A stretch of DNA of 64,000 nucleotides, taken from the IMG/VR virus record IMGVR_UViG_3300005471_000012, positions 27,149-91,148 of that record; one strand, written 5' to 3'. The notes beneath the pieces are model-generated. The model saw nothing but the letters and a program-made list of their open reading frames with translations, made no database searches and had not been told where the DNA came from. Shown one piece after another: positions 202 through 26,239 of this stretch. Both the position numbers and the translations under genes were made by a program. Position 1 is the stretch's first letter, and each line of letters begins with the position of its first letter. The stretch is from a virus.

Positions 202-230
202 ATGATACGCGATTCTGATAACGCTGTCTA
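202..230 (-). promoter_or_regulatory. sigma70/SigA-like promoter (family member P0), reading leftwards out of the window
   Basis: Minus strand TAGACA-17nt-TATCAT; same architecture as five promoters in the leftward array. Confidence 0.6.
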
Positions 231-253: not shown

Positions 254-787
254 ATGCCGCGCAGCCGCACCGTCGCCGATCGTGAACGCGATGCCAAAGC
301 CCTGTCCCTGCGCGCCCGCGGGTACACGCACCGGCAGATTTCCGCGCAGCTCGGCTGGAAATCACCCGCGTCCGCCGTCGGCGCCTGCACCCGCGCCATG
401 CAGGACATGTACCGGGAGGATATAGACAAATGGCGCCAGATTGAGCTGGACAAGCTCGATGACCTGACCCGCGAGGCCTGGGACGCGATGCAGGAAGCCC
501 ACTACCTCGTCTCCCAGGGCAAGGTGGTCAAGGACGACGACGGCACGATGCTCGTCAACGCCGTCGACAAAGTCAGCCAGCTCGGCACGCTTCTGCTGAA
601 GATCAGCGAGTCCCGCCGAAAGCTGCTCGGCATCGACGCCCCGCCGCAGAAGGCGCCGACGCCCGATAATCTTGATGCCGAGATCGAGACGCTGGTCAAG
701 CAGCTTTCGGGTCTGGGCGACGTGCCGAAGCAGGTGGCGGACGGCACGGTGGCCGCTATCGAGAGCGCGGCCCCGCCGGGGGCCTGA
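254..787 (+). CDS. terS: terminase small subunit (N-terminal HTH)
   Basis: GAGGAGG RBS; HTH-like start (RDAKALSLRARGYTHRQISAQLGW); RRKLLGIDAP motif typical of phage TerS; directly upstream of TerL. Confidence 0.8.
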   Translation: MPRSRTVADRERDAKALSLRARGYTHRQISAQLGWKSPASAVGACTRAMQDMYREDIDKWRQIELDKLDDLTREAWDAMQEAHYLVSQGKVVKDDDGTMLVNAVDKVSQLGTLLLKISESRRKLLGIDAPPQKAPTPDNLDAEIETLVKQLSGLGDVPKQVADGTVAAIESAAPPGA

Positions 788-794
788 GGCCGCA

Positions 795-3302
795 GTGCCG
801 CAGCCATCGTGGGATCAGCTTCCGCCTCATGCGAAGCAGCAGCTCCGCGACCGGCTCGCGGCTGAGCTGGCGGTGCGGCGCAGTACCACCCCCCGGCCGT
901 GGCGGAAGCTGGCGCGGCCGAAGCAGCTGCCGCCGGACGACCCGCGGCACTGCCTGCCGGATGCGAACGGCTACAAATGCGGGTGCGACAAGCCCGATAT
1001 GACCTTCAATGTCTGGCTCGTGATGGCCGGGCGCGGGCTGGGCAAAACGTGGCAAGGCGCCCAGTGGCTAACGGAACAGGCAATTCGGTATCCAGGGACA
1101 GAGTGGGCCGTGGTGGCCCCAACCTTCAGGGACGTGCGCAAAACGGCTATAGAGGGCACAACGGGCATTCTGGCAGCACTCCAGCCGGGCGAGCTGGCCA
1201 GCTATCACCGCAACGAGCTGATGATCACCCTCGCGGGAGGGTCCCACCTGTTCGGCTACTCGGCCGATAATCCGGAGCGCCTGCGGGGCGCCAACCTGTC
1301 CGGTGCATGGTGCGTCGCCCGGGGGGAACCCGTACTCACATCTCGCGGGCCCGTGCCGATTGAGGACGTGCGACCCGGCATGAGGGTGTGGACGCGGCAG
1401 GGATGGCGCCGGGTGCTCGCGCAGCGGCTGATGGCCCGCGCCGCGCCCGTTGTGCGCGTCGTTACAGACGGAGGGGCGAGCGTCCGGGTCACGGCAGGCC
1501 ACCGGATTTGGACGCAACACGCCGGGTGGATGGAAGCACGAACGCTGGCCCCTGGCGATATTCTTAATGTATGGAATTCGCCTACGGGCCACCGGCCTGG
1601 ATCGAATGGGAGGGCGTCCGCTTCTATCGCCGCAGCAAGAGCGGCCATTACGCGGATCGCACCGGCTGCCTGCTTCACGTCGCCGTCTGGGAGCGCGCCC
1701 ATAAGCGACGGATACCTGACGGCCACGCTGTGCATCACAAGGACGAAGATAAGGTCAACAACGGCGCCGGCAACCTCGAACTGCTCACCAAGGCCGAGCA
1801 CACCAGGCACCATAACCTCACCGAGCCCCGCGGCATTGCCGTCCTCGCCACAGCCGAGCGGTCCGGCATATCGCGCAACTCATGGGCCAACCGGCCGGAG
1901 CGCGATTTCGCCTGTAACGTCTGCGGCACCTCGTTCAAATCCAAGGGCCAGCGGGCCATGTACTGCTCGCCCAACTGCCGCGCCGCCGCCTTCCGCGCTG
2001 ATCACCGCAAACGCGGACAGGACGCGCTGGCCGACCGGCAATGCGAATGGTGCGGCGACAGCTTCACCCCGCCAGACCGGCGCACCGTCTATTGCGGCCC
2101 CGCCTGCCGCCAGAGGGCAGGAGACGGCGCGAAGCGCGCCCGCAACCGCGCACGGCTGGGAATTCCGGCCTGCGCAGCCTGCGGCAACCTGTTCACCCCC
2201 AAGGACGGTCGCCAGCGATTCTGCTCCGGTCTCTGCCGTCAGCGGCATGCGCGTCGCGAGGCTCGAGCCCGCTGGGCGGGCTGACGTATACGACCTCCAG
2301 GTCGAGGGCGTTCACGAGTTCGTCGTCGGCCGCATCCTGGTCCATAACTGCGATGAGCTAGGTTCGTGGCGGTACCCGCAGACCTGGTACGAGGGCCTCA
2401 TGCCCGCCTTGCGGGTAGGCGAGTTCCCCCGGGTGGTCGTCACGACGACCCCCCGACTCGTCCCGCTGATCAGGGACCTGGTCGGCCGCGATGACGGCTC
2501 TGTGCACATTACCCGCGGGTCGACGTGGGAGAACGCCGACAACCTGTCTGCGGCGGCGCTCGCGGAACTCCGGCACCGCTACGGCGGCACGAGGCTGGGC
2601 CGGCAAGAGCTCGAAGGCGAGCTCCTCGAGGACGTTGATGGCGCACTGTGGGCCCGCGATGACATTGACGCGGCCCGCGTGAAGCTCGGCGAGGTGCCGC
2701 AGCTGCACCGCGTCGTCGTCGCGATCGACCCGGCCACCACGTCGGGCGAGGATTCCGACCAGACGGGCATCGTGGTCGTCGGGGAGGGCCCGGGCGGGCA
2801 CGGCTACGTGCTGGCCGACCTGACGTTCCGGGGCACCCCGGATGCGACGATGCGCAAGGCGGTCGGCGCCTACCATCAGTACCAGGCCGACTCGGTCGTG
2901 GCAGAGGTCAACAACGGCGGGGATTACATCCGGTCCCTGCTGCGGACCGTTGACCCGCAGATCCCGTACCGGTCGGTGCGGGCGACCCGCGGCAAGCGGA
3001 CCCGGGCCGAGCCGGTGTCTGCGCTGTACGAACAGCGCAGAATGCACCATGTCGGGGTGTTCCCGGAGCTAGAGGACGAGATGTGCTCGTGGACTCCGGA
3101 TAGCCTCCTGGGCAGCCCGGACCGCATGGACGCACTTGTCTGGGGGTGTACCGAGCTGCGCGGCCTGTCGGTCGGCTCGTGGCGTGAAGCATACGGCGTG
3201 ATCATTTGCGCTACCTGCCAGGAGCCATACATGCCGGAAGGCAAGACGGCCTGCCCGTGGTGCGGCGCCGACGTTCCGGGTGAGGCCGAGGTGCCAGCGT
3301 GA
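795..3302 (+). CDS. terL: terminase large subunit containing an intein
   Basis: Walker A AGRGLGKT; RLRGANLSGAW..CDE Walker B split by the intein; VVVTTTP motif III; nuclease motifs VVAIDPA, AEVNNGGD, SPDRMDAL; likely GTG start at 795 after GAGG. Confidence 0.95.
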   Translation: MPQPSWDQLPPHAKQQLRDRLAAELAVRRSTTPRPWRKLARPKQLPPDDPRHCLPDANGYKCGCDKPDMTFNVWLVMAGRGLGKTWQGAQWLTEQAIRYPGTEWAVVAPTFRDVRKTAIEGTTGILAALQPGELASYHRNELMITLAGGSHLFGYSADNPERLRGANLSGAWCVARGEPVLTSRGPVPIEDVRPGMRVWTRQGWRRVLAQRLMARAAPVVRVVTDGGASVRVTAGHRIWTQHAGWMEARTLAPGDILNVWNSPTGHRPGSNGRASASIAAARAAITRIAPAACFTSPSGSAPISDGYLTATLCITRTKIRSTTAPATSNCSPRPSTPGTITSPSPAALPSSPQPSGPAYRATHGPTGRSAISPVTSAAPRSNPRASGPCTARPTAAPPPSALITANADRTRWPTGNANGAATASPRQTGAPSIAAPPAARGQETARSAPATAHGWEFRPAQPAATCSPPRTVASDSAPVSAVSGMRVARLEPAGRADVYDLQVEGVHEFVVGRILVHNCDELGSWRYPQTWYEGLMPALRVGEFPRVVVTTTPRLVPLIRDLVGRDDGSVHITRGSTWENADNLSAAALAELRHRYGGTRLGRQELEGELLEDVDGALWARDDIDAARVKLGEVPQLHRVVVAIDPATTSGEDSDQTGIVVVGEGPGGHGYVLADLTFRGTPDATMRKAVGAYHQYQADSVVAEVNNGGDYIRSLLRTVDPQIPYRSVRATRGKRTRAEPVSALYEQRRMHHVGVFPELEDEMCSWTPDSLLGSPDRMDALVWGCTELRGLSVGSWREAYGVIICATCQEPYMPEGKTACPWCGADVPGEAEVPA
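1311..2348 (+). mobile_element. intein (346 aa) in TerL
   Basis: Block A CVARGEPVLT; block B VRVTAGHRIW; block F DVYDLQVEGVHEF; terminal VHN followed by extein Cys; excision restores AW-CDE. Confidence 0.92.
1571..2284 (+). CDS. HNH homing endonuclease with three CxxC..(Y/F)CxxxC Zn-finger repeats, in an alternative frame inside the intein
   Basis: HVAVWE...VHHKDEDKVNN..NLELL...EH HNH motif; GC3-rich codons in this frame; offset +2 relative to the TerL frame. Confidence 0.88.
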   Translation: MEFAYGPPAWIEWEGVRFYRRSKSGHYADRTGCLLHVAVWERAHKRRIPDGHAVHHKDEDKVNNGAGNLELLTKAEHTRHHNLTEPRGIAVLATAERSGISRNSWANRPERDFACNVCGTSFKSKGQRAMYCSPNCRAAAFRADHRKRGQDALADRQCEWCGDSFTPPDRRTVYCGPACRQRAGDGAKRARNRARLGIPACAACGNLFTPKDGRQRFCSGLCRQRHARREARARWAG

Positions 3303-5807: not shown

Positions 5808-6083
5808 TCAGCCGGCTAGGCGGGCCGCCGCGCCTGGTTCGCACAGGCAGCAAAGATCGCCGGGGGCGCGATCCGGATCCCGCCCGCAGCGCCACGAGCA
5901 CGGCTGGGAGATGCAGTCGCCGTAGGTGCGGTGAACGCGCTCGGTCTTCCAGCTCTGGTAGCCAATCCCGCCGGCGGGCGGTATTTTCCACTCCTGGTAG
6001 CGCGTGCCCGGCTCGATCGGCAGCCGGCAGCGGGAGCACCTGTGCCGCTGGCGAGCTGTCCGCTCGCAGACGATGGCGCTCAT
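5808..6083 (-). CDS. small Cys-rich (Zn-binding) protein
   Basis: ARQRHRCSRC..I.PG.RY motif; ATGA coupling. Confidence 0.6.
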   Translation of the reverse strand: MSAIVCERTARQRHRCSRCRLPIEPGTRYQEWKIPPAGGIGYQSWKTERVHRTYGDCISQPCSWRCGRDPDRAPGDLCCLCEPGAAARLAG

Positions 6084-6979: not shown

Positions 6980-7579
6980 CTAGCTGCCGGCCAGGTCGCT
7001 GGCACGTACGGTGATCCCCTCTTCGTCCCCGGCCGGGTCGTAGTCCCAGGCGAGCCATCCGGAGCCTTCCCGGAACACGCCGGGCTCGACTTCGCCGCCG
7101 GTCGTCACCTCGTGCTCCCGGTCTTCCGCGGTCTCGCCGTTCTCAAGCGGCTCGGCGAGACGGGCGAGCGCTTCCCGCAGGTTCCTCTCAAGCCGCCGGC
7201 GGATCTTCTGCCGCCCGTCGCGGATCTCTTCGGCGTGCGCGACGGCGAGCGCCTCGGCGCACAGGCTGATCGCCGCGCCGCTCGTGTCCGCCGCGGTGAA
7301 CCAGTCGACGGACAGCCACTCGCCGCAGCCATGTTGCTTGGACCACTCTTCGATCGCGCCGCCTTGCCCGGCGCCGGTGTCGAGCAGCACCGGGCAGCGG
7401 TCGATGACCCGGGCGACCGGCTGACCGCACTGCGGGCAGGTGTCACCGACCCGGTCGGCCCAGACGATCGCGTAGGCGAGATGCCCGCCGGTGACGATGT
7501 CGCGGCCGGCGAGGATCTCGGCGTGGATGCCCGGCGGCAGCTTCACGGTCACCTGATAGTCGTCATCGTTCATGATCAT
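6980..7579 (-). CDS. hypothetical protein with CxxC motif
   Basis: GGAGGG RBS; GC3-rich codons. Confidence 0.65.
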   Translation of the reverse strand: MIMNDDDYQVTVKLPPGIHAEILAGRDIVTGGHLAYAIVWADRVGDTCPQCGQPVARVIDRCPVLLDTGAGQGGAIEEWSKQHGCGEWLSVDWFTAADTSGAAISLCAEALAVAHAEEIRDGRQKIRRRLERNLREALARLAEPLENGETAEDREHEVTTGGEVEPGVFREGSGWLAWDYDPAGDEEGITVRASDLAGS

Positions 7580-10193: not shown

Positions 10194-10222
10194 ATGATAC
10201 GTCATCATCCGAATCTTGTCTA
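10194..10222 (-). promoter_or_regulatory. promoter P1
   Basis: TAGACA-agattcggatgatgacg-TATCAT. Confidence 0.7.
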
Positions 10223-11079: not shown

Positions 11080-11271
11080 TCAATCTGTTGCCGCCTTCCG
11101 CGCGCTGCTCGATGCGGATTCGCTGGCCAGCAGGGCTAGCGCTTTCCGCTCCCACTCGCCGCATGCGGCCGTGCCAGGCCTGAGCGACCGGGCGTAACGC
11201 GCCACCCCGGCCGCGGCCTCCTGGCGGCTAACCTCTATGACTTCGCCGCTGTCGGCGTCGTAGACCAGCAT
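11080..11271 (-). CDS. hypothetical protein
   Basis: GGAGGAG RBS; TGATG coupling. Confidence 0.5.
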   Translation of the reverse strand: MLVYDADSGEVIEVSRQEAAAGVARYARSLRPGTAACGEWERKALALLASESASSSARKAATD

Positions 11272-11416
11272 CACAGGACGTCTCCTCCGGCCCCGGGCAT
11301 GTGCTTGACGCACGCGATCACCCGGGCCCAGCTCAGGACGTTCGCCGTCCACATGCCGTACTGACTCACGCACCCGCACCGGAGGCGGCGCGTGGTGCCG
11401 ATCAGCAGGCGGGCCA

Positions 11417-12012: not shown

Positions 12013-12041
12013 ACGATACGCCATCATGCGAATTGTGTCTA
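12013..12041 (-). promoter_or_regulatory. promoter P2
   Basis: TAGACA-caattcgcatgatggcg-TATCGT. Confidence 0.7.
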
Positions 12042-12079: not shown

Positions 12080-13324
12080 TTACGCAGGTAGCGCGAGCGG
12101 GCCGCGCGGCGAGGTTGTGTAGCTTGTGCGGGCCGGGATCTCCTCGACCTCGTCCGGGTCGGACATGTCCACGTCTGCGAGATCGGTGACAGTCCCCGCG
12201 GGGGCGCGGCGTTCCCATTCGGCCCGCAGCAGGGCGACGACGTATCCGCGTCCGCGTCGCTGGCCGACGATCCCGGTCCGCTGGCCGTGCTCCGGGGCGA
12301 CCTCGGCCATCATCATGGACAGGGCCCGGTCGGGCAGTGCTTCATACATCGGCTCGCCGAACCGGCGCATTTCGTCACGCAAGTCGGCGCCGAGCGCGAA
12401 CCCGTCGCTGACCAGCCCGGCCGGGATCATGATGTCGCTCGCCCGGCACATGTCCCTGAGAACGGTCTGCCGCGGGGTGAGCACAGGCTCGCTCGCCGCG
12501 TCCAGGGCGAGGTCCAGGAACGCGGCGAGGATGCGCCTCGGCCACATGCCGCCGGCGGCGCCGGCGATCGCGAACAGCGGCTCCCAGATTTCCCGCTTGC
12601 GGCCTTTCAGCTTCGGGTGCAGTCCGCGAGCGCGGAACGCCCGGATCAGCCCGGCGTTCTCTTTTGCCCATTGCCCGAGTGACGCCCGGTACTTGAGTGC
12701 CTGCGGGTCGTGCTCGCGGACAAGGTAATCCTCGGCCGGCTCGCCGGGGGCCATGGTGATCACGACACTCCGGGACCGGACGTCGTTGGGCACCGCGGCG
12801 CCGCGGCCGGCCATCGCCGCGGCGGCGAACACGTTGACGTCCTCCGCGACCAGGCTGGACGCGAAACTATCGGTCGCGCCGTACTTGTAGCCTTCGCGCA
12901 GCAGCGTGCCGAGCGGGTGAGTGGTGCCGGATCTGCCGGACCGGCCGAACACGTCGGACACCTCGTCCACGATGAACGTGGGGCGCTCGGGCTCGTCCAG
13001 TTTCGCGCGGACCGCATACCGGGTGCCCTTCCCGCCGGCCCAGGAGTTGCGTGACAGGTCACGCACCCTGGCCAGGGTCTCGGACTTGCCGGCTTCGGGG
13101 TCCTGGGACGTGATCAGCAGCCGCGGCGTCACCACGAAGCACGCCTCTAGCACGTGCGTGTGAGCGCACCATGCGGCGATCGCGTCGAGCTGCGCGGGAC
13201 TGGCGTCGATGAACCTGGCCAGGAATTCGCGGGTGTCGTCCAGGACTGAGGGGCCCGGCGCTACCGGGCCGGGCATGCTGGCGGGCGGGGCTGCCGCCGG
13301 CTCCCATGCGTGCCGTGTGTCCAC
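12080..13324 (-). CDS. P-loop NTPase-like protein, DUF3631-type
   Basis: AWCAHTH...TPRLLITS..PEAGKSET Walker A variant; TFIVDEV Walker B; R.RE.WEPL.AIA.AAGG.WP motif. Confidence 0.7.
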   Translation of the reverse strand: MDTRHAWEPAAAPPASMPGPVAPGPSVLDDTREFLARFIDASPAQLDAIAAWCAHTHVLEACFVVTPRLLITSQDPEAGKSETLARVRDLSRNSWAGGKGTRYAVRAKLDEPERPTFIVDEVSDVFGRSGRSGTTHPLGTLLREGYKYGATDSFASSLVAEDVNVFAAAAMAGRGAAVPNDVRSRSVVITMAPGEPAEDYLVREHDPQALKYRASLGQWAKENAGLIRAFRARGLHPKLKGRKREIWEPLFAIAGAAGGMWPRRILAAFLDLALDAASEPVLTPRQTVLRDMCRASDIMIPAGLVSDGFALGADLRDEMRRFGEPMYEALPDRALSMMMAEVAPEHGQRTGIVGQRRGRGYVVALLRAEWERRAPAGTVTDLADVDMSDPDEVEEIPARTSYTTSPRGPLALPA

Positions 13325-16823: not shown

Positions 16824-16852
16824 ACGATACGCCATTAGGCGAAACGTGTCTA
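16824..16852 (-). promoter_or_regulatory. promoter P3
   Basis: TAGACA-cgtttcgcctaatggcg-TATCGT. Confidence 0.7.
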
Positions 16853-16999: not shown

Positions 17000-17584
17000 C
17001 TAGCTGGCCGCCCTAGCCCGCGCTATCGTGCGGTACACGGTCGGCCGCGAGACGTCGAACAGCTCGGCCAGCTCGGTAATGTTGTGGCCGCCGGCCCGGT
17101 GCAGGGTGAGCAGGTGCGCTTGCCTGGTAGCGGACAGCTTGGGCGGCTTGCCCCTGAGGTGCCCTTTGGCCCGTGCGATGGCCATGCCCTCGCGGGTGCG
17201 CATGCGGAGCAGGTCGACCTCGAATTCGGCGAAGATCGCGAGTATGGCGAAGAACATCTTGCCCATCGGGTCGGCCGGGTCGTAGATGGTGCCGCCGAGT
17301 GAGAGTTTCACCCCGCGGGCCGTCAGGTCGTCGGCGATGTCCTGGAAATCGCGCACCGATCGCGCGAGCCGGTCCAGCTTGGGCGTCACGAGCGTGTCCC
17401 CGCTTCGCACGGCGGCTAGCGCTTTGCCTAGTTCCGGCCGGTCGCGGTTGGTGCCGGTTAGCCCGTGGTCCAGGTAGATGCGCCCGGGAGTCACCCCCAG
17501 GTCGCGGAGGGCCGCTTTCTGGGCGGCAAGATCCTGCTTTACGGTACTGCACCGGGCGTAGCCCGTAAGCGTGTCGTTTCCCAT
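17000..17584 (-). CDS. small serine recombinase (resolvase/invertase family) with C-terminal HTH
   Basis: GYARCST..Q catalytic Ser; RPEL; GDTLV..KLDRLARS; ELAELFDVSRPTVYR HTH. Confidence 0.95.
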   Translation of the reverse strand: MGNDTLTGYARCSTVKQDLAAQKAALRDLGVTPGRIYLDHGLTGTNRDRPELGKALAAVRSGDTLVTPKLDRLARSVRDFQDIADDLTARGVKLSLGGTIYDPADPMGKMFFAILAIFAEFEVDLLRMRTREGMAIARAKGHLRGKPPKLSATRQAHLLTLHRAGGHNITELAELFDVSRPTVYRTIARARAAS

Positions 17585-17589
17585 GCGGG

Positions 17590-17735
17590 GAGTGTACGGT
17601 AAGCGGGGCTGAGCGGTCAAATCCACCGTACACCCTATCTGAGACGGTCTTTCGGCAGGTCGGCACCTGACGGCAAGTGCATTTGGCGGCGTCCGCTGAA
17701 GGTTCCCCTACCGGACGCTTCGTAAACGGACATAC
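17590..17735. promoter_or_regulatory. putative res site
   Basis: Inverted repeat GTGTACGGT (17592-17600)/ACCGTACAC (17625-17633) plus further GTCCG/CGGAC half-sites immediately upstream of the resolvase. Confidence 0.55.
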
Positions 17736-17976: not shown

Positions 17977-18279
17977 TCACGCTTCGGCGCTCTTGGCGAA
18001 CCGCGCGGCCAGCCATGCCGTGTCCGCCTGGGCGAGCTGCGACCAGGCTAGGTAATCGGCGGGGTCGCCGGTAGCCTGCCAGCGGAGAAACATGGCGTGC
18101 TCGGCGTGGCGGGCCCTGATCGAGTCGGCCAGCAGGTTACGGGCCTGCTTTCGCGAGATGCGCCGGCGTCCGATGTACGGCCGTGCGGTCGCCTCCCGGG
18201 CGGCGTCGCCGGCAGGCGCGTATGCTTGGGCGTGGCGCCCGCGGCGGCCTGCGATCACCGGGCTTGGGCTGGTGGTCAT
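17977..18279 (-). CDS. hypothetical protein
   Basis: GAAAGGA RBS before MTTSP. Confidence 0.5.
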   Translation of the reverse strand: MTTSPSPVIAGRRGRHAQAYAPAGDAAREATARPYIGRRRISRKQARNLLADSIRARHAEHAMFLRWQATGDPADYLAWSQLAQADTAWLAARFAKSAEA

Positions 18280-18377
18280 GGGTCTGGTCCTTTCATCCTT
18301 GGCTAGGATTCCGATCGGCCGGCCTGGCCGTCGCGGCGCCGTCCCGGCAGGACCGGGGCGGCACCGTGACAGCCCGC

Positions 18378-18629
18378 CTAGCGGCTGAGCCGCTTGTCGC
18401 GCTGCTCGTTGTTCTCGCACCGCCAGATGTGGCCGTCCGGGGTTGGCACCCGGACTAGCCGTTTCCCGACGTCGCCGGCCTGGACGTAGCCGATCACGTC
18501 GCCAACGGGGATCAGGCCCTCGGTCGTGCGGATGCGGAGCTTGCCGACGTCATCCGCCGTGATCGTGTAGAACACCCGCTCGGCAGGCCGGGGCTCGGCC
18601 TCGGGCTCGGGCTTGAATATTTCCCGCAT
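18378..18629 (-). CDS. hypothetical protein with an internal repeat (DDVGK/GDVGK)
   Basis: GGAAGGA RBS. Confidence 0.65.
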   Translation of the reverse strand: MREIFKPEPEAEPRPAERVFYTITADDVGKLRIRTTEGLIPVGDVIGYVQAGDVGKRLVRVPTPDGHIWRCENNEQRDKRLSR

Positions 18630-18676
18630 GGTCTCTCTGTCCTTCCGTGCCGTGGTGCGGTCGGGATGCCGGGCGG

Positions 18677-18862
18677 TTACCGGCTGTACTTGAGATAGTG
18701 GGCGGGCTTCTCGCCCGTGGTGACCTTGCGGATTGCCGCGTCAATCTCGGCGCGGTTCTCCTGAATGAACTTGCGCATCGACAGGCCCGACGACTGCCAC
18801 CAGTCGTAAAGCCCTTCATCGTTGTTAATCCAGCCCTCCCGGCTGTCGCCACCTCGCGGCAT
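18677..18862 (-). CDS. conserved small phage protein
   Basis: WI.NDEGLY.WW..S..SMR.FI.ENR.EID motif; GAAAGGA RBS. Confidence 0.7.
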   Translation of the reverse strand: MPRGGDSREGWINNDEGLYDWWQSSGLSMRKFIQENRAEIDAAIRKVTTGEKPAHYLKYSR

Positions 18863-18885
18863 CGCTGGCCGTCCTTTCACGCTGG

Positions 18886-18953
18886 CACCCTGCCAGTCAT
18901 CAGCGCGGGTAGGGTGAGGTTCCCGCGGACGCCGGGCGGGCCGGCGTTTCGGC
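18886..18953 (-). ncRNA. type II hammerhead ribozyme HH1
   Basis: GCC-GAAA-CGCCGG-loop-CCGGCG-UC/-CGCGGG-AACCUCACCCUA-CCCGCG-CUGAUGA-CU-GGC-AGGGUG; loop I CACCCU can pair with tail AGGGUG. Confidence 0.85.
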
Positions 18954-19484
18954 TTAGCGCCCGGGCAGGTAGCGCCTGACCATGTCAAGGAATCCGGCGG
19001 GCAGCTCCCGGACCAGCCACGCCGAGCCGTAGCGGTAGCCGGTGACCGGGCACGGCGGCGTTAGGTCCAGGCTCGGCACCGTGCGGCCGTAGCCGTCCGT
19101 TTCCATGACTGGCGCCACGTGATCGCAGCCGGCCGTCATGCCGTTCAGGTGCCATCCGGCCAGCTTGACTAGCGCGGTTGCCTTGCCGGCGTCGAATCCG
19201 GGCGCGTACCCGGTTAGCTCGGCCAGCGGTTCCACAGTCGCGCCGCCTGACACAATGTCGCGCCAGTCCGGGTGCCAGACTGCGGTTGTGATGGAGAAAT
19301 CCAGCGGCCGCCGCACTTTGCGATGGTCGGTCGTCTCGTATTCGTCGCGCCGGTCCAGGCGTTCCATCGTGACCGTCACGGTAACGCGGAGATTCCGCTT
19401 GTATCCGTAGCCGGTGCCGGGCACCGTGCCCACGTAGACATCCTCACGGCTGAGCGCAATCTCGCCGTTTAGCCCTCTGGTCAT
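18954..19484 (-). CDS. hypothetical protein
   Basis: WHLNGM.AGC.H...CPVTGY.YG.AWL motif; GAAAGGA RBS. Confidence 0.7.
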   Translation of the reverse strand: MTRGLNGEIALSREDVYVGTVPGTGYGYKRNLRVTVTVTMERLDRRDEYETTDHRKVRRPLDFSITTAVWHPDWRDIVSGGATVEPLAELTGYAPGFDAGKATALVKLAGWHLNGMTAGCDHVAPVMETDGYGRTVPSLDLTPPCPVTGYRYGSAWLVRELPAGFLDMVRRYLPGR

Positions 19485-19530
19485 TTCGTGATCCTTTCCC
19501 GTGCCTGTCTGGGCTGGCTGCCGCTAGCTG

Positions 19531-19713
19531 TTACCCGGCGCTCTCGGTGATGCCGTATTCGCCGATCGTGTTCCCGTTGCCGTCAAGGATCTTGCCTGAG
19601 CCGTGGCCGGCCCGGATGCGCCGCGAGACGTTAGCGACGTAATCCGCCACGGCATCGGGCCCCGATTCGGCCGCCTCGGCATTGTCCAGGTTCATCGTCA
19701 GAGTGAAGATCAT
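19531..19713 (-). CDS. conserved small phage protein
   Basis: F.L.M..DNA.....G.I.D.NGNTIG.Y motif; GGAGG RBS. Confidence 0.7.
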   Translation of the reverse strand: MIFTLTMNLDNAEAAESGPDAVADYVANVSRRIRAGHGSGKILDGNGNTIGEYGITESAG

Positions 19714-19735
19714 TTTCGTCCGGCCTCCGGTCGTT

Positions 19736-19800
19736 TGCCCTGCCTTCGTCAGTGCCAGGCGGGCAGTCCTGGCAGACACCCGCGCGGCGGGTGTTTCGGC
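19736..19800 (-). ncRNA. type II hammerhead ribozyme HH2
   Basis: GCC-GAAA-CACCCG-loop-CGGGUG-UC/-UGCCAGG-ACUGCCCG-CCUGGCA-CUGACGA-A-GGC-A-GGGCA; loop I UGCCC can pair with tail GGGCA. Confidence 0.88.
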
Positions 19801-20100
19801 TCAGCCCTCGGCCGGGAAGCAGTCCGCATAGGTGAATTCGGAAGCCTCGGACTTCCACGGAATGTCTATCGTGTCGTCGCCGGACTCGATTGAGGCTTCG
19901 AAGTCGGTCACGTTTGAGAAGTCGCCGGCGTGCGTGTCAAGCCACGCCTGCACCGATTCGCGCGTGATCTTGCCATCGCCGTGCTGGCGCACGTTGTCAA
20001 CGTCATGCCCGCTTAGCTCGTACGTCTGGGCAGCGGTAACGCTCGCCATCCATATGGTCCCGATCACCCGGATAACCGACTTGCGGACCGTGTAGCGCAT
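19801..20100 (-). CDS. hypothetical protein
   Basis: GGAAGG RBS before MRYTV. Confidence 0.65.
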   Translation of the reverse strand: MRYTVRKSVIRVIGTIWMASVTAAQTYELSGHDVDNVRQHGDGKITRESVQAWLDTHAGDFSNVTDFEASIESGDDTIDIPWKSEASEFTYADCFPAEG

Positions 20101-20169
20101 CGTCTTGCCTTCCGTTCGGTTGCCGCTAGAAACTCCGCACCGCGCGCCGTGGCGCGCGATACGCAACCG

Positions 20170-20592
20170 CTAGGGCGTGCTGTCCTCTGCGGCGAACATT
20201 CCAAGCCGCTCATACTCGGCGGCCAGCCATTCCGCCTCGGCCGCGCTGTACTCCGCCTCGCGGGAAGAGTCGCCTGCATACTCGGAAGCCTCGCCGCGCA
20301 ATGCGAACGACTCGCCAGCGGCGGACAGGAACGATGCGAGCGCCCGTGCCATCTCGGCGTGACCGGCGGGCCGGCCCTGGGGTGACCTGAGGTCGGACCC
20401 TTCGAGCACTGTCCGCCCGTCGGCCACGACCAGGTAATCCCATCCGTTGCCGGCGTACGCCTTGCCTACGGTGCCGCCACCGTGCGCCGACAGGTAGAGC
20501 GAGATCTCGCCGGCGCCGGCCATGATCGGCGGTACCTCTACCGCGTACTCATGCTCGCTAGCGTCGTATCCGTAGATTTGCTGTCCGGTCAT
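20170..20592 (-). CDS. hypothetical protein
   Basis: GCAACGGAGG leader; GGGTVG.AY.G.W.Y motif. Confidence 0.65.
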   Translation of the reverse strand: MTGQQIYGYDASEHEYAVEVPPIMAGAGEISLYLSAHGGGTVGKAYAGNGWDYLVVADGRTVLEGSDLRSPQGRPAGHAEMARALASFLSAAGESFALRGEASEYAGDSSREAEYSAAEAEWLAAEYERLGMFAAEDSTP

Positions 20593-20622
20593 GACATCCT
20601 CCGTTGCTCTGCCTATATCGCC

Positions 20623-20651
20623 ATGATACACGGTTAGGCGAATGGCGTCTA
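20623..20651 (-). promoter_or_regulatory. promoter P4
   Basis: TAGACG-ccattcgcctaaccgtg-TATCAT. Confidence 0.7.
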
Positions 20652-20843
20652 GTTGTTAGGCGTGGTGACCAGCCATCGCGCGGCATCGTCGCGCGTGACC
20701 TCATGTAGCCGGCTGTTGCCGTCCGTCACTGTGAGGCGCCGGCCGTGCGCATGCACCGCGGCAACAGTGACAGGCCCGTGAGCTGCCGTCTCGACAGTCG
20801 CGCCTATCGCCGGCTGCCGGACGCGGCGGGTACGTGCTGCCAT
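20649..20843 (-). CDS. hypothetical small beta protein
   Basis: CGGAG RBS. Confidence 0.55.
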   Translation of the reverse strand: MAARTRRVRQPAIGATVETAAHGPVTVAAVHAHGRRLTVTDGNSRLHEVTRDDAARWLVTTPNN

Positions 20844-20902
20844 GCTGATCACTCCGTTTCGCTGGTCTCGAACGGGCCGGACTGTCCGGCCGGCCCGGTA
20901 GC

Positions 20903-21208
20903 TCAGCCGCGCGGCTGGATCGCGGCGTGATTCTTCCGGTAGGTGAACGCGCGGAAACGCACGATCGGCGGATCATCATCTGTCGCGACAGATGAGCCGG
21001 ACACGGTCTCAACTGACACGTACCCGGTAACAGTCTTGCCGTGCACCTCCACTGCGGCGGGAACACTAAAATACGTGTCCGCCGTTGCCGCTATGCGCTT
21101 GAGCGCGCGAACCTTACCGTCAGCGCATTCCGCCCGCCCGCCCGTGAAAACATCCCACATGCCGCCGGTAGTGAGACTTGTACCGTTCGCATACTGCCTG
21201 ATTCCCAT
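20903..21208 (-). CDS. conserved phage hypothetical protein
   Basis: C.DGK.R.....ADT.FSVPA.V...GKTV.GY motif; GGAGG RBS. Confidence 0.7.
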   Translation of the reverse strand: MGIRQYANGTSLTTGGMWDVFTGGRAECADGKVRALKRIAATADTYFSVPAAVEVHGKTVTGYVSVETVSGSSVATDDDPPIVRFRAFTYRKNHAAIQPRG

Positions 21209-21283
21209 TGCCCTAACCTCCGGTTGCGTTGCCCGTAATGATCAGTCCGGCCACGTGCCAGCGTTCAGAACGCGGCCGGGAGC

Positions 21284-21550
21284 TCACGGCGAGACGGATG
21301 CGCTATCCGGCAGGTACTGACGTACGCGATTGATGAAAACGCGGTGCGCTTCGGCCTGGTCGGCGAAGATCTTTGCCGGCCACCTCGGGTCGGTTTCGTC
21401 GCCGTGTGCCGTGACGTTGCGAGAGCTGATCTGCACTAGCGCGCGGCCATCGGGATGCACCGCGTAAAAGATCCGCGCGGAACCTCCGCCAGTGTGATCC
21501 TCGAACACGCCAAGGATCTTGAATCCTTGTATCCGCTGGTATTGCTCCAC
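21284..21550 (-). CDS. hypothetical protein
   Basis: GCAACGGAGG leader. Confidence 0.65.
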   Translation of the reverse strand: MEQYQRIQGFKILGVFEDHTGGGSARIFYAVHPDGRALVQISSRNVTAHGDETDPRWPAKIFADQAEAHRVFINRVRQYLPDSASVSP

Positions 21551-21646
21551 TGCTCTGACCTCCGTTGCCCTGTACCTCGCACCGTACGGTCGGACGGTGC
21601 GCCATGGCCGGCGCCAGACTGGGGAGGCTGGCGCCCGCCATGATCA
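21551..21646 (-). repeat. two-hairpin leader element A, copy 1
   Basis: ~48 nt shared with 21977-22070 with 3 differences, plus a CATG-closed variable hairpin. Confidence 0.8.
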
Positions 21647-21976
21647 GCTTGTGATTTTCCAGAACGATACGGCGTGACGTTCGCCGCCGAGATTGCTGCC
21701 GCACACATCGCAGGCGGACCAGCTGAACGACTCTGTCTCGCAGTCGCACTCGCTGCCAGCCTCGCCGGCCGTCTGGCCGTCAAAGTCGTCCGTGCATGAG
21801 TGCTCGCTGCGGAGTAGCCCTAGCGTGATCCTGTAGCCGGCGTTGCGCGTGTCAATCTCTGCCTGCCAGGCGGTAACGTGCGCCGCGCTCCAATCGGCCG
21901 GCGTCTCGCCGTTTGCCAGCAAAAACAGGCAGTCCGTGCACGCCCAACCGCTGCACGTGTACTCATCTGTTGCCAT
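21644..21976 (-). CDS. Cys-rich protein (CxDC...FSW..CD.CG..L.G.RH)
   Basis: GCAACGGAGG leader; Zn-binding motifs. Confidence 0.7.
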   Translation of the reverse strand: MATDEYTCSGWACTDCLFLLANGETPADWSAAHVTAWQAEIDTRNAGYRITLGLLRSEHSCTDDFDGQTAGEAGSECDCETESFSWSACDVCGSNLGGERHAVSFWKITS

Positions 21977-22070
21977 TGCCTTACCTCCGTTGCCCTGCAC
22001 TCGCACCGTACGGTCGCACGGTGCGCCATGAAGCGCGGCAGGCCTGCCGGACTGTCACGCAACATGATCA
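21977..22070 (-). repeat. two-hairpin leader element A, copy 2
   Basis: Matches copy 1 at 21551-21646. Confidence 0.8.
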
Positions 22071-22073
22071 GCG

Positions 22074-22358
22074 TTAGGCGTTCGGGTTGGGGCCCGTCCG
22101 CCATGCGTAGGCCGGCGAGATACGGCCAATGCCGGCCCGGTAGTGATGCTTGGAACGCGGCACGATGCGAGCGGCATAGTTGCCGGCGATGACCTCGCCG
22201 CGCCGGTAGGCACCGCGCGTTGCCGTGACCTTAACGGTGATACTGCCGGACAGTTCGTGTCCGGCAGCTCCGGCAACTACCTCGGTAACCTTTACCGGCA
22301 CCATGCCGTTACGCATCGTGTCGATATACGCCAACTCGCCTGCATAGTGGTCAGTCAT
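22074..22358 (-). CDS. hypothetical protein
   Basis: GCAACGGAGG leader; VTATRGAY.RGE motif. Confidence 0.7.
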   Translation of the reverse strand: MTDHYAGELAYIDTMRNGMVPVKVTEVVAGAAGHELSGSITVKVTATRGAYRRGEVIAGNYAARIVPRSKHHYRAGIGRISPAYAWRTGPNPNA

Positions 22359-22425
22359 TGCCCTACCTCCGTTGCGTTGCCGTATCGATCACGGCCGGCA
22401 CGTGCGAGACGTGCCGGCGAGTCCG

Positions 22426-22725
22426 CTACGCCGACTCTGAGCAGTCATCCTCAGCGCACGACGTAACCCACCAGGCGGTAGGTATGTCATGCGCCGAGTC
22501 GGGGTTCGTCGCCGTGTAGACCAGGAAGTCCTGACCTGCCGTTGCGCCGTGAATCGCAGTGTGCGCTTCGAGGTACTGTTCGTCCGTGCCGTCATCCCAT
22601 GCGCGCTCAAGATCCTCACGCAGAGCTGACAGCGCATCGGACCAATCCGCGTACGGGTAGCCCGCATCATCCGACTCGGGCAGGTAGCCTGCCACGTTGT
22701 GGCCAGCGTGCCAGTGCATCGCCAT
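22426..22725 (-). CDS. hypothetical acidic protein, first gene of the leftward array
   Basis: W.AG.N..GYLPE motif; GCAACGGAGG leader. Confidence 0.7.
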   Translation of the reverse strand: MAMHWHAGHNVAGYLPESDDAGYPYADWSDALSALREDLERAWDDGTDEQYLEAHTAIHGATAGQDFLVYTATNPDSAHDIPTAWWVTSCAEDDCSESA

Positions 22726-22757
22726 TGCCTTACCTCCGTTGCTTGCCGATACTCGGC

Positions 22758-22786
22758 ACGATACAGCATCATGCGAACGCTGTCTA
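22758..22786 (-). promoter_or_regulatory. promoter P5 at the head of the leftward array
   Basis: TAGACA-gcgttcgcatgatgctg-TATCGT. Confidence 0.75.
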
Positions 22787-23068
22787 GCTATCTGGCGAGG
22801 CAACGTGCGGACGCTGCCGGCCTGGCAGGCAGGTACGGATGCGCAGGGCACAAGGCTTGACCCCCCCCTCGGGGGGTCCCCAATCGCCCGAAGTCGCATA
22901 GGCGAATGCAGAAACCCCGGCTAGCCCGGTCCCTGACGAGCCTCGCGCGCGCGTGCGAGTGGCATTTCGTCCCGGTTTGATTCCCCCTGATTTTTTTGGT
23001 GGCAGTCAGCTGCCGCGCGAGTGGCGGCTGACTGCCGCTGAACGCCGACCTACCGGGGCGGGGGTTGC

Positions 23069-26000
23069 ATGCCGGCCGCCGAGATGACCGCCCGTACCCG
23101 CGAGATCATGCGCGCGCTGAAGTCAACGGCGCAGCCGGGCTCGCAGAGCGGCGGGTTCGGCGCCGTGACGGGCCCGTCTATCTCGCCCGGGCCGAGCCCG
23201 CTGGTCATGTCGTACGGCGAATGGACGTCCGGGCGGGCATCAGGCACCAGGTATTCCCTGCCCCGTGACCCTGAGACGTTCCTGTCGGGCATGTTCGGGC
23301 CGCTCGCGCCTATTCAGACCATCCCGATCGACGTGCCCCGCGAGGGCGAGGAACGGCCCGAGCCGCGGCGGTGGCAGTACCCGGTCGGCTGGAACATGCC
23401 GATGGGCATGCCCGGCACCGAGGGGATCGGGAAACTCGCCGATTTCCAGACGCTGCGCACGATCGCCGACCTCTACTCGGTGGCCAGGGCCTGCATCGAA
23501 CTGCGGAAAGCCGAGCTACGGGGGGTCGGCTGGGACATCGTGCTGACGAAGCAGGCGGCTAAGGCGCTGCGCGGCGACCACAAGGGGATGGCCGACTTCG
23601 CGAAGAGGCGCGCCGAGGCGGTGCGGTGGTGGCGGCGTCCCGACCACGATTACGCCGATTTCAGCACTTGGTTCGATGCGCTGCTGGAAGAGGTGTTCGT
23701 CACCGACGCGCTGGCGCTGTACGCGCAGCCGTCGCTCGGCACCCGCAAGGGACTGCTGGGCAGCAGCCTGGCCGCCCTCGACCTCATCGACGGGACGCTG
23801 ATCAAGCCGCTCGTTGACATCCGGGGCAGCAGGCCGCAGCCGCCGAATCCTAGCTACCAGCAGTTCTCCTACGGGGTTCCGCGCGTCGACCTGATGACGC
23901 TGCTCACCCACCATGAGACCCCCGATGAGCGGGAACTGGTCGCCGAGTACCGCGGCGACCAGCTGTTCTACCTGCCCTACAGCCAGCGGACGTGGACGCC
24001 GTACGGGATGGCGCCGATCGAGCGGGCGATCATCCCGATCATGGCGGGGCTGAACAAGCAGGCCTACCAGCTGAATTTCTTCCAGGAAGGCAGCATTCCG
24101 GGCCTGTTCGTGTCACCGGGCGACATGAACATGACCCCCAGCCAGATCCGCGAGCTGCAGGACGCCCTGAACGCGCTGGCGGGGGACCAGTCGTGGAAAC
24201 ACAAGATCATCGTGCTGCCGGGCGGCAGCAAGGTTGACCCGCAGAAGCCCGCGGCGCTCGCCGACCAGTTCGACGACGTGATCATGGCGCAGACCTGCAT
24301 GGCCTTCGGGGTCATGCCGATGGAGCTGGGCATTTCGCCGCAGGTCAGTTCAAGTCAGTCATCTGCGGCAGCTAACCAGATGGCCAAAGCCAGCCAGGAC
24401 ATCCAGGAACGCAAGTCAACCGTCCCGCTGCTGCTGTGGCTCAAGACCGCGATCTTCGACCGGATCCTGCAGGGCGTCTGCGGCCAGGCAGACATGGAAT
24501 GGCAGTTCGAGGGCCTCGAAGAGGACGAGGACGCCGAGACGGTCACCAGCCTGCTGGTGCAGCAGGTCGGCACCGGCATGCGGTCGATCGACGAGGCCCG
24601 GCAGGAACTTGGCCTGGACCCGTGGAACCTGCCGGTCACCTCCGATCCGGGCTGGTCGACCGAGCGGACCGGGTTCGTGTCTTTCACGGCGACCGGGGCG
24701 TTCCCGACCGCGGGCGGCGCTTCGCAGGGCGACACGCAAACCGACAGCCAGTCTGGCTCGGTGGCGCTGCCTGCCGCCGATCCGCGGCAGGCGATCACCG
24801 CGCCGAAACCACCCGATGACGGCAAGCCGTCCACGCCGGCGCATTCCGCGGCGCATGCCACCCCCGACGCGACCCGGAGCAAGCCGGCATCCGGCAACGG
24901 CCGCGCCGGGAAAGCCGCGAGCCTCGGCCAGTGGCGAGCCCGCGACATCCCCGCGCATGTCATGGCGATCATGGCCGAGGACCTGGGCAAGGGGCTGACC
25001 GCCGATGAGGTGTGCGCCAGCGTCCGGCCGCTGCTCGCCGGCAGCAAGCCGGCGCTCCGCGAACTGGGCCTGATCCGCTCATGGCTGCGCAAGTCGCACA
25101 CGAATGTGACAACCCGGCACGGGCACGGCGACCAGACCCACGAGGTGTACGCCTACCTCGGGCGGCACTACCCGGCGTCGGTACTCGAATGGGTCAAGGA
25201 AGCCCGCTGGGACGAGCCGAGAAAAGTGGCACTGTCGAAAATCGACATGGCACGCCGTCCGGGTGGCGCCCGCGACGAGCAGAAAGTTGCCCTGATCGCC
25301 GCCGCGATCAGGGCAGGCGTGCACCTGCCCCCGGTCGTCCTGGTGAACGTGCCCGGCAAGAACCTGTACGAGATCGCCGACGGATGGCATCGCACCCTGG
25401 CCATCAAGCACGCAGGCGGCAAGACGGCACTGGCATGGGTCGGCAAAGCCGGCGCGAAAACCGGGCCCTGGGACGGCGAGATGAACCGGGCCAAGCTGAA
25501 CAAGGCCGCCGGGGGTGGTGCCGGCCCAAAAGCGGGTAACCCGGCCTGGGACCACGACCAGGTCCTGGCCGCCGAGTTCGCCCGTCAGCTGGCGCGTGGC
25601 CTGCAAGCCTCGGTGCACGCCGGGCCGTTCGCGCACGCGTGGCTGCAAGCCCGCCGGCAAGGCGCAAGCGCGCCGCAGGCCAGCCCAGCGGTCCGGGCGG
25701 CCGTCAGGCACGCTCTGGCGAGCGTGCTGTACGCCCTGTGGGCACGGGCCTGGGGCCTGGGCTGGCGGGCCGCGCTGACCCTGCTTGCCGCGCAGCTGCG
25801 TCGTTTGCTGACCGGTGACCCCGGCGTATCTGCCCGGGGGCTGCGGCAGTTGCTCTTGCAAGCCGAACAGCGCATCGGCGCGATGACGCAAACCCGCATC
25901 GGCCGCCTGGAAAGGCTGCTCGGCGAAACCCCGGAAAACATCAGCGCCGCTGAGCTGGCCTCGCTGATCGACGCCGAGCTCGGCTCGTTTGACGCGGCGC

Positions 26001-26239
26001 TGCTGGTTACCCAGACCGAGACGACATGGGCGGTCAGCGAAGCGATGGTCACCGCCTACCTTGACGCCGGGATCACGGAAGCGCGGTGGCAGACAGCCGA
26101 CGACGACGTCACCTGCCTCAGGTGCCTGGCCAACGAAGCGCAGGGCGCTCTGCCCGTCGGCGATCAGTACGCCAGCGGCGACACCAGCCCGCCGGCGCAC
26201 CCGAGGTGCAGGTGCGGACTACTGCCCGCTGGCAACTGA
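23069..26239 (+). CDS. portal protein fused to a ParB/Srx-like domain and a MuF-type head morphogenesis domain
   Basis: Portal motifs YGMAPIE, FFQEGSIP, CMAFGVMP.ELG, SIDEARQELGLDP; PPVVLV..YEIADGWHRTLA; RWQT..D..TC..C...PPAHPRCRC. Confidence 0.85.
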   Translation: MPAAEMTARTREIMRALKSTAQPGSQSGGFGAVTGPSISPGPSPLVMSYGEWTSGRASGTRYSLPRDPETFLSGMFGPLAPIQTIPIDVPREGEERPEPRRWQYPVGWNMPMGMPGTEGIGKLADFQTLRTIADLYSVARACIELRKAELRGVGWDIVLTKQAAKALRGDHKGMADFAKRRAEAVRWWRRPDHDYADFSTWFDALLEEVFVTDALALYAQPSLGTRKGLLGSSLAALDLIDGTLIKPLVDIRGSRPQPPNPSYQQFSYGVPRVDLMTLLTHHETPDERELVAEYRGDQLFYLPYSQRTWTPYGMAPIERAIIPIMAGLNKQAYQLNFFQEGSIPGLFVSPGDMNMTPSQIRELQDALNALAGDQSWKHKIIVLPGGSKVDPQKPAALADQFDDVIMAQTCMAFGVMPMELGISPQVSSSQSSAAANQMAKASQDIQERKSTVPLLLWLKTAIFDRILQGVCGQADMEWQFEGLEEDEDAETVTSLLVQQVGTGMRSIDEARQELGLDPWNLPVTSDPGWSTERTGFVSFTATGAFPTAGGASQGDTQTDSQSGSVALPAADPRQAITAPKPPDDGKPSTPAHSAAHATPDATRSKPASGNGRAGKAASLGQWRARDIPAHVMAIMAEDLGKGLTADEVCASVRPLLAGSKPALRELGLIRSWLRKSHTNVTTRHGHGDQTHEVYAYLGRHYPASVLEWVKEARWDEPRKVALSKIDMARRPGGARDEQKVALIAAAIRAGVHLPPVVLVNVPGKNLYEIADGWHRTLAIKHAGGKTALAWVGKAGAKTGPWDGEMNRAKLNKAAGGGAGPKAGNPAWDHDQVLAAEFARQLARGLQASVHAGPFAHAWLQARRQGASAPQASPAVRAAVRHALASVLYALWARAWGLGWRAALTLLAAQLRRLLTGDPGVSARGLRQLLLQAEQRIGAMTQTRIGRLERLLGETPENISAAELASLIDAELGSFDAALLVTQTETTWAVSEAMVTAYLDAGITEARWQTADDDVTCLRCLANEAQGALPVGDQYASGDTSPPAHPRCRCGLLPAGN

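Follow-up and report, generated by a model that had tools for sequence, protein, structure and literature searches.

Two spacers within an array of small genes in an uncultured, high-GC tailed phage are, judged by sequence and predicted folding, genuine type II hammerhead ribozymes. As to the ribozymes, the arrangement is one already known from phages; the proposal that elements A and B are new ribozymes is unsupported, and nothing shows the other spacers to be such. The array lies on the minus strand, from 22,790 to 17,977 of the window (i.e., of the whole 64,000-nt stretch of DNA analysed here), and is composed of 13 small unrelated ORFs. On balance we favour an operon driven from the promoters P4 and P5, in which the two hammerheads would cut the transcript and the remaining spacers would be lineage-specific modules, each of hairpin and leader, spread by recombination.

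Organization of the array

The host of the phage is probably an actinobacterium, and the array is probably a non-structural segment of an operon that is read leftward and, we infer, early (Table 1). All 13 ORFs showed GC3>GC1>GC2 and a Shine-Dalgarno-like motif upstream. The spacers were 46-98 nt long, and a recognisable module was present in 10 of the 13 gaps upstream of or between the ORFs, in agreement with the sequence-only reading, which had described the spacers as mostly defined modules. The same reading had these modules beginning at or just after the upstream stop codon, which holds for the hammerheads, element A and P5. A hairpin was located directly 3' of the stop codon in seven of the 12 spacers. 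Since no U tract follows any of the array hairpins, a terminator function for them is doubtful.

Table 1 Positions in the window of the array genes, their spacer modules and the neighbouring recombinase gene
Feature	Position	Strand	Description
Promoter P4	22758..22786	-	-35 TAGACA, 17-nt spacer, -10 TATCGT; drives g1 onward
g1	22426..22725	-	99 aa ORFan; shared leader motif at 22733-22742
Element B copy 1	22359..22425	-	10-bp GC hairpin (~22394-22418), TGATC segment, shared leader ending in GCAACGGAGG
g2	22074..22358	-	94 aa ORFan
Element A copy 1	21977..22073	-	hairpin 1 22026-22067, hairpin 2 22002-22025, leader; 109 bits to model R1
g3	21644..21976	-	110 aa cysteine-rich protein; phrog_3034
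Element A copy 2	21551..21643	-	hairpin 1 21602-21643, hairpin 2 21578-21601, leader; 112 bits to model R1
g4	21284..21550	-	88 aa ORFan, GTG start
Element B copy 2	21209..21283	-	10-bp hairpin (~21247-21279), TGATCA segment, leader with GCAACCGGAGG
g5	20903..21208	-	101 aa ORFan
Spacer s5	20844..20902	-	12-bp hairpin (~20869-20897), reduced A-like 3' part, extended SD before g6
g6	20649..20843	-	64 aa ORFan
Promoter P5	20623..20651	-	TAGACG, 17-nt spacer, TATCAT; leader motif at 20598-20607
g7	20170..20592	-	140 aa ORFan
Spacer s7	20101..20169	-	11-bp GC hairpin and diverged B-type leader
g8	19801..20100	-	99 aa ORFan
Type II hammerhead HH1 (HH2 of the sequence-only reading)	19734-19801	-	predicted cleavage 19775|19774; Rfam RF02276
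g9	19531..19713	-	60 aa
g10	18954..19484	-	176 aa ORFan
Type II hammerhead HH2 (HH1 of the sequence-only reading)	18884-18954	-	predicted cleavage 18928|18927; RF02276
g11	18677..18862	-	61 aa ORFan
g12	18378..18629	-	83 aa ORFan
Spacer s12	18280..18377	-	long hairpin of ~22 bp, no U tract
g13	17977..18279	-	100 aa ORFan
Small serine recombinase gene	17000-17626	-	DNA-invertase-type; ~350 nt past the g13 end (17977)

Type II hammerheads

Both hammerheads proposed earlier matched the Rfam model Hammerhead_II (RF02276), whose curated gathering threshold is 37 bits. HH1 scored 51 bits, above that threshold, and HH2 scored 32.8 bits (E = 8e-4), below it, with an E value of 2.9e-6 when searched against its own genome. 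Checking by hand revealed a complete catalytic core in both, CUGA(C/U)GA, GAAA and, as the NUH cleavage triplet, GUC, as well as the type II topology, with loops closing stems I and III and an open-ended stem II. Stem III has 8 and 7 bp and stem I has 7 and 6 bp in HH1 and HH2, respectively, and stem II has only 3 bp (GCC/GGC) in both and is separated from A9 by 1-2 unpaired bases. Loop I pairs with the 3' tail in a pseudoknot of 5 bp in HH1 and 6 bp in HH2. Each ribozyme starts on the final base of the upstream stop codon (of g8 and g10). Two distant phage contigs, G023 and L014, also presented type II hammerheads flush with a stop codon, together with a g3 homologue.

Placed in this way, the hammerheads should cut the transcript in vivo at the junctions g8|g9 and g10|g11. 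After the cut, stem III would form the last hairpin of the upstream mRNA, which would bear a 2',3'-cyclic phosphate, and stem I the first hairpin of the downstream mRNA, which would bear a 5'-OH and have its ribosome binding site just beyond. Each cleavage product would have a hairpin at its end or its beginning. The idea of an RNA-processed transcript is retained for these two junctions as a prediction, and its extension to A and B as processing RNA classes found no support.

In prophages, hammerheads on either side of one gene or of a short block of genes have been known since 2011, and it was proposed that clusters of them cut the long transcripts of phages to mRNAs of gene length (Perreault et al. 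2011, PMC3088659); a role in transcript processing has also been proposed elsewhere (PMC6765202). The ribozymes described here resemble those of the prophages in type II topology, in the pseudoknot of loop I with the 3' tail and in their placement between small variable phage genes. Unlike the prophage clusters, a ribozyme occupies only two of the 12 junctions, and the hammerheads differ in their high-GC, probably actinobacterial host lineage, in the 3-bp stem II and in the 1-2 extra bases after A9. If they cut as predicted, they would offer a compact high-GC phage case for asking why phages split operon transcripts.

Promoters and shared start leader

A promoter scan of the array found sigma-70-like sites exactly at P4 and P5, and both belong to a six-copy promoter family present on the minus strand only, so that the promoters claimed within the spacers were borne out. 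The two sites align with each other without gaps. P5 and the stop codon of g6 overlap at the -35 box. From P4 and P5 the 13 ORFs would be transcribed leftward.

The motif GCAAC(C)GGAGG, which the sequence-only reading took for a common initiation motif, had six matches against 0.53 expected, all of them at 20598-22742 on the minus strand and all 5-8 nt upstream of ATG or GTG start codons, confirming the claim. Elsewhere in the 91-kb record the motif had no match. Contig L014 has a repeated start leader of its own, so that the sharing of a leader is seen more than once among arrays of this kind.

Start-associated sequences (SAS) and extended SAS (ESAS) have been described in the mycobacteriophages of Cluster K (Pope et al. 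2011, PMC3203893). In common with SAS, the leader is an asymmetric motif that embeds a Shine-Dalgarno sequence and lies a few nt ahead of start codons, always in the same orientation and only at non-structural, unrelated genes, and inverted repeats with a variable spacer precede about half of the copies. Unlike SAS, it reads GCAAC(C)GGAGG and not GGGATAGGAGCCC, its six copies lie within 2.1 kb, and the inverted repeats form clean predicted RNA hairpins. Given this other sequence, and that no phage in IMG/VR carries the shared leader, membership in SAS/ESAS was rejected and the leader was considered an analogue; as such, it would be a second actinophage example of start-associated sequences, and may provide uniform, strong initiation.

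Hairpin spacers

The two copies of element A have 73 nt in common at 75% identity according to the repeat finder, and a mean column identity of 89% in a MAFFT alignment. The conserved 5' end starts just past the stop codon in copy 1 and includes the g3 stop codon (to 21648) in copy 2. Conservation was uneven: hairpin 2, a 24-bp dyad including a perfect 10-bp palindrome, was almost invariant (1 difference in 24 nt), and the interior of hairpin 1 was only ~47% identical. When the 20 pairs of the element were compared between the copies, 18 were invariant, one showed a compensatory change and one a one-sided change. Hairpin 1 had been described as differing while keeping its pairing; that description needs correcting, in that it comes from these two changes among 20 pairs. 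Conservation this uneven suggests that hairpin 2 has a function tied to its sequence, which a passive hairpin would not explain.

In an alignment, the two copies of element B reached 81%. Hairpins were also predicted in s5, s7 and s12; s5 matched the element A model R1 weakly (17.9 bits), and s12, with a fold of -58.4 kcal/mol (z = -4.4), was the only spacer clearly better than its shuffles. One layout is common to A, B, s5 and s7: stop codon, GC hairpin or hairpins, and leader. In the operon that we favour, these spacers (A and B twice each) would be lineage-specific copies of that one design, and their hairpins would serve the upstream cistron as passive barriers at its 3' end or as weak terminators that lack a U tract.

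A and B are placed like the hammerheads, between a stop codon and a ribosome binding site, and they had been put forward as candidates for novel RNA classes, whether self-cleaving or acting in processing. There is precedent for this way of thinking: twister-sister, pistol and hatchet were found by searching beside known ribozymes (PMC6765202), and by the same logic an unexplained structured spacer near hammerheads is a ribozyme candidate. The uneven conservation of A and the kept pairing of its hairpin 1 also agree with A and/or B doing the hammerheads' job at equivalent gene junctions. Those classes, however, had many diverse covarying copies, whereas A and B are true repeats of only two copies each, nearly identical where conserved. 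Neither element matched any Rfam family, ribozymes included, even at E<=10, and neither had relatives among the 2.9 million viral contigs of IMG/VR, in 185,579 genomes from GTDB or at 65 related loci. Their fold energies were no better than those of shuffled sequence (z -0.1 to -1.9), and a conserved junction or core is not evident in the two stacked perfect hairpins of A. We consider such a ribozyme role very unlikely, and it is likewise highly improbable that the 90-nt A (two stacked hairpins, the second almost invariant), perhaps with B, represents a new self-cleaving or nuclease-guiding class that replaces hammerheads in actinophage early operons.

The near-invariance and dyad symmetry of hairpin 2 would also fit a function as DNA, either as the operator of a DNA-binding protein of the phage or as the site at which the small serine recombinase encoded beyond g13 acts. 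However, the A copies are direct repeats 425 bp apart, between which a resolvase would excise g3; near the recombinase there was no inverted pair that matches, and there is no promoter at that place for an operator to control. We give this function hardly any credence.

The early polycistronic transcript of phage T7 is processed by RNase III. As in T7, hairpins between consecutive early genes would give monocistronic mRNAs with protective 3' hairpins, and the hairpins of A, B and the long stem might be host endonuclease sites (for RNase III in the long stems, for RNase E/J in the TGATC segments), with host-independent hammerheads at two junctions. The frequent hairpin immediately behind the stop codon is consistent with such T7-like processing, as are the longest stems, ~15 bp in hairpin 1 of A copy 2 and ~22 bp in s12, and the TGATC(A/G)(T/A)T segments, the only AU-richer single-stranded stretches. 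But most stems, unlike those of T7, are too short for RNase III (just 10-12 bp in B, s5 and s7), internal loops like those of T7 R sites were not demonstrated, and two junctions carry a predicted self-cleaving RNA. Host cleavage of these hairpins is, in our opinion, unlikely.

Spread of the modules

Repeated spacers of the array were 75-95% identical, and their similarity ended at the stop and start codons. The 13 flanking genes, compared with each other, were non-paralogous, and therefore the spread or persistence of the spacers did not depend on the genes. In the favoured operon, recombination would have carried the modules between unrelated genes.

A related explanation, compatible with an RNA role, is that the promoter, hairpin and leader modules are mainly homology patches for swapping, inserting and deleting small accessory genes, an actinophage counterpart of the PeSL of T4-like phages. 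These composite terminator/promoter cassettes have been proposed as recombination points for modular shuffling (Arbiol 2010, PMC2839356; Comeau 2014, PMC4122927) and, like the array spacers, are short repeated stem-loop regulatory cassettes between small variable ORFs. They are a precedent for the suggestion of the sequence-only reading that the repeated leaders may be recombination handles, like an integron without an integrase, which would also fit the presence of near-identical spacers beside non-paralogous genes. Besides this precedent and the identity pattern of the spacers, the explanation would account for two observations: none of the 13 genes was common to phages whose portal is 55-65% identical, and g3 homologues were widespread in actinophage-like contigs, in many differing phage contexts. 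On the other hand, the repeats are short (30-90 nt), and complete turnover of early genes is normal at such phage distance. A role mainly as homology patches is thus possible but doubtful.

The array spacers themselves were rejected as PeSL members, because promoter and hairpin are separate modules here instead of a composite of terminator and promoter: the scan detected no promoter inside A or B, P4 and P5 being the sole promoter-like sites of the array. An integron was likewise rejected, as no tyrosine recombinase is encoded within the array or next to it, the neighbouring recombinase being of the small serine invertase type, two promoters are internal, and the repeats hold the ribosome binding site of each gene and are not attC-like. 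Junctions with ribozyme, promoter and hairpin adjoin one another within 4.5 kb, so that, if the hammerheads cut as predicted, the stability and translation of neighbouring cistrons would lend themselves to direct comparison.

Genome setting and gene content of the array

The virus record is linear, 91,148 bp long and an estimated 81% complete; the window, its last 64 kb, had a GC content of about 68%. The source virus is a tailed phage. A portal domain was found in a 1056-aa ORF, and the large terminase gene contains an intein, placed between the Terminase_6N and Terminase_6C domains by Intein_splicing and Hint_2 matches that are weak and below threshold. The host is likely an actinobacterium, as inferred from the GC content, a DUF3631 protein, portal matches (weak ones) to Arthrobacter phages, and the presence of a homologue of array gene g3 in Streptomyces phage BillNye (gp2). 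No close relative was found among cultured phages, nor any nucleotide relative of the 4.5-kb block among GenBank phages, and L003-L006, four phages whose portals are related to this one at 55-65% amino-acid identity, carried neither hammerheads nor homologues of the array genes.

The array comprises 13 ORFs of 60-176 aa, g1 to g13, all in the minus strand and transcribed away from the portal gene. Every one showed the order GC3>GC1>GC2, as in real high-GC genes, and a Shine-Dalgarno-like motif upstream. None matched Pfam, PHROGs matches were obtained for g3 (phrog_3034) and, weakly, g9 only, and no paralogous pair was present among the 13. Since the spacers measure 46-98 nt, the non-coding share of the block is 19%. 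About 350 nt downstream of the array end lies a gene for a small serine recombinase of the DNA-invertase or resolvase type; a search for a segment that it might invert gave no convincing inverted-repeat pair within 12 kb. In the divergent region between promoter P4 and the portal gene start, a perfect 14-bp hairpin follows a T7 run; the Rfam miRNA-family match at this hairpin was spurious.

Positions of the features discussed in the text (window coordinates unless another locus is named)
Feature	Position	Strand	Basis or detail
Promoter family copy	202-230	-	pattern match
Promoter family copy	10194-10222	-	pattern match
Promoter family copy	12013-12041	-	pattern match
Promoter family copy	16824-16852	-	pattern match
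Promoter family copy P5	20623-20651	-	pattern match
Promoter family copy P4	22758-22786	-	pattern match
g1	22725-22426	-	
g3	21644-21976	-	phrog_3034
g13	18279-17977	-	
Element A copy	22073-21977	-	alignment, 90 columns
Element A copy	21643-21551	-	alignment, 90 columns
Element B copy	22425-22359	-	alignment and fold
Element B copy	21283-21209	-	alignment and fold
Hammerhead HH1	19734-19801	-	Hammerhead_II
Hammerhead HH2	18884-18954	-	Hammerhead_II
G023 hammerheads	L072:15814-15884, 11208-11274		type II
L014 hammerheads	5974-6042, 7141-7208		type II
L014 repeated start context	4712, 4959, 7517, 7768, 8972		ATGACAACC
Large terminase gene with intein	672-3302	+	
Complement of HH1 segment 19764-19784	13228-13248	+	inverted repeat
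Serine recombinase gene	17000-17626	-	Resolvase, HTH_7; phrog_125
Hairpin after T7 run	22985-23045	+	
ORF with portal domain	23069-26239	+	

Promoters and shared leader

Two promoters, P4 and P5, had been proposed within the array from sequence alone, and both were borne out. A consensus scan found three sigma-70-like sites in 17.5-23.2 kb, versus 0.7 expected, and two of the three were located exactly at P4 and P5, which align without gaps over 68 nt through the -35 box, a TTCGC block, the extended -10 and the leader. The pattern derived from them, TAGAC-N4-TT-N11-GTATC(A/G)T, had six matches in the window, in the minus strand only, versus zero expected; P4 and P5 therefore belong to the phage's own promoter family, which, as read from the sequence, serves the leftward non-structural genes. 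Additional bases, TTCGC and TGATG, are conserved in the spacer of the family, suggesting that it uses a factor besides the host sigma.

The initiation motif GCAAC(C)GGAGG, described as repeated in the sequence-only reading, was present in six copies between 20598 and 22742, in the minus strand only, versus 0.53 expected, and was absent from the rest of the 91-kb record. The copies are positioned 5-8 nt before the starts of g1, g2, g3, g4, g5 and g7. Around 30 nt are common to the leaders of g1, g2 and g5, of which the leader in s7 (the spacer after g7) is a diverged version. The complement of the 16S rRNA 3' tail accounts for GGAGGU only. The GCAAC part is no better explained than the flanks of the start-associated sequences of Cluster K mycobacteriophages (PMC3203893). 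Leader patterns gave no matches in the collections searched, or chance matches inside coding sequence only. The distant phage contig L014, which comes from a metagenome and carries a g3 homologue, presented a repeated start context of its own: five genes begin ATGACAACC, and similar AAGGAG-type leaders precede four of them. Shared leaders may thus be common in hammerhead arrays of this kind. An apparent repeated motif in L005 corresponded to coding sequence.

Hammerhead ribozymes

The two hammerheads noticed in the array were supported by both Rfam matches and structure. HH1, between g8 and g9, matched Hammerhead_II with 51 bits (gathering score 37), and HH2, between g10 and g11, below that score with 32.8 bits (E of 8e-4 in a 6-kb search and 2.9e-6 in its own genome). 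Both contain the core CUGA(C/U)GA, GAAA and GUC, an open 3-bp helix (GCC/GGC) as stem II, one or two unpaired bases after A9, and a pseudoknot of 5-6 bp between loop I and the 3' tail, i.e., the type II tertiary contact of Perreault et al. 2011 (PMC3088659). Stem III has 8 bp in HH1 and 7 bp in HH2, and stem I has 7 and 6 bp, respectively; perfect pairing is kept even though the stem sequences differ between the copies. The predicted cleavage sites are 19775|19774 and 18928|18927, and the first base of each hammerhead is the final base of the upstream stop codon.

A similar arrangement was found near homologues of g3, a protein of about 110 aa that is rich in cysteine and in which C79, C89 and C92, among others, are invariant. 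At least 68 homologues were found in metagenomes. Those from the metagenome and viral scans reached at most 52% identity and the genome contigs collection had no relative, while the closest homologues, in the protein collection, were 70-79% identical, so closer relatives clearly exist. The hammerhead scan took in 50 of the 61 g3-homologue loci (whole viral records or fetched metagenome loci; L007-L067) and revealed paired type II hammerheads near the g3 homologue in two of the 50, the distant phage contigs G023 (locus L072) and L014, where they are located at the stop codon or a few bases off, just upstream of the following RBS. In prophages, single genes flanked by multiple hammerheads have been reported, with a proposed role in processing long phage transcripts (PMC3088659), a role still unproven as of a 2019 review (PMC6765202). 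The hammerhead junctions of the array are a further instance of this known phage arrangement. Inside the DUF3631 gene, a stretch of 21 nt is 90% complementary to HH1 across stem III, the cleavage site and stem I; the DUF3631 mRNA could pair with this ribozyme, or the match is possibly due to chance.

Elements A and B and related spacers

Element A, a two-copy spacer repeat, consists of two adjacent hairpins with 12 and 8 counted pairs. The copies are about 95% identical outside the interior of hairpin 1 and about 47% inside it. Eighteen of the 20 pairs are invariant, one has a one-sided change and one is compensatory; a covariation shuffle control, which has no power with two sequences, gave values at least as good in 248 of 500 shuffles. 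That hairpin 2 is nearly unchanged next to a hairpin 1 that has diverged may point to a protein or RNA partner recognizing the sequence of hairpin 2. In each copy of element B, a perfectly paired GC hairpin of 10 bp is followed by a TGATC segment and then by the shared leader; the loops differ in length and the hairpins were not aligned by MAFFT. The spacers s5 (after g5) and s7 are built on the same plan, with a single hairpin each. Fold energies of A and B were not significantly better than those of dinucleotide shuffles (z of -0.08 to -1.85), and the sole spacer standing out was s12, after g12, with a hairpin of about 22 bp (z = -4.4). No U tract was found after any of the hairpins.

The sequence-only reading had also taken A and B, which occupy the same positions as the hammerheads, as candidates for new processing or self-cleaving RNA classes. 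For self-cleavage, position is the one point in favor, and we consider it very improbable that they are ribozymes. At E<=10, neither element was matched by any Rfam family, ribozyme or other. The covariance model built from A recovered, in the phage's own genome, the two A copies and, weakly, s5; among the 35 whole viral records and 30 metagenome loci searched with it, no hit was credible. An exact-pattern search for the core of hairpin 2 of A gave nothing in IMG/VR and three hits in 596 Gb of genome sequence, all in unrelated contexts and about as many as chance would give; BLASTn of each spacer against all loci returned short chance matches only. Element A was ruled out as a degenerate hammerhead, since its CUGAUCA lacks the essential G8 and its hairpin 1 is not followed by GAAA, and sigma-70 promoters were ruled out for both elements by the lack of consensus sites.

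The observation of spacer modules was confirmed, and its interpretation received partial support. The sequences of A, B, s5 and s7 are best explained as copies, specific to this lineage, of a module with the order 'stop - hairpin - start-associated leader'. The flanking genes have no relation to one another and the spacer similarity ends at stop and start codons; the modules therefore appear to have been either spread by recombination or retained by selection, independently of the genes. Such spread would agree with what has been proposed for the PeSL cassettes of T4-like phages (PMC2839356, PMC4122927).

Two short sequences were rejected as special signals: TGATCA, with 47 copies across the 91-kb genome, and TGATCATG, in G023 simply a frequent stop/start junction. 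The latter octamer is found at the starts of eight genes of the hammerhead array in G023 (L072 10859-18417), as a stop/start junction or in an extended-SD context; in element A, whose conserved 5' end it makes up, it is possibly a vestigial gene junction.
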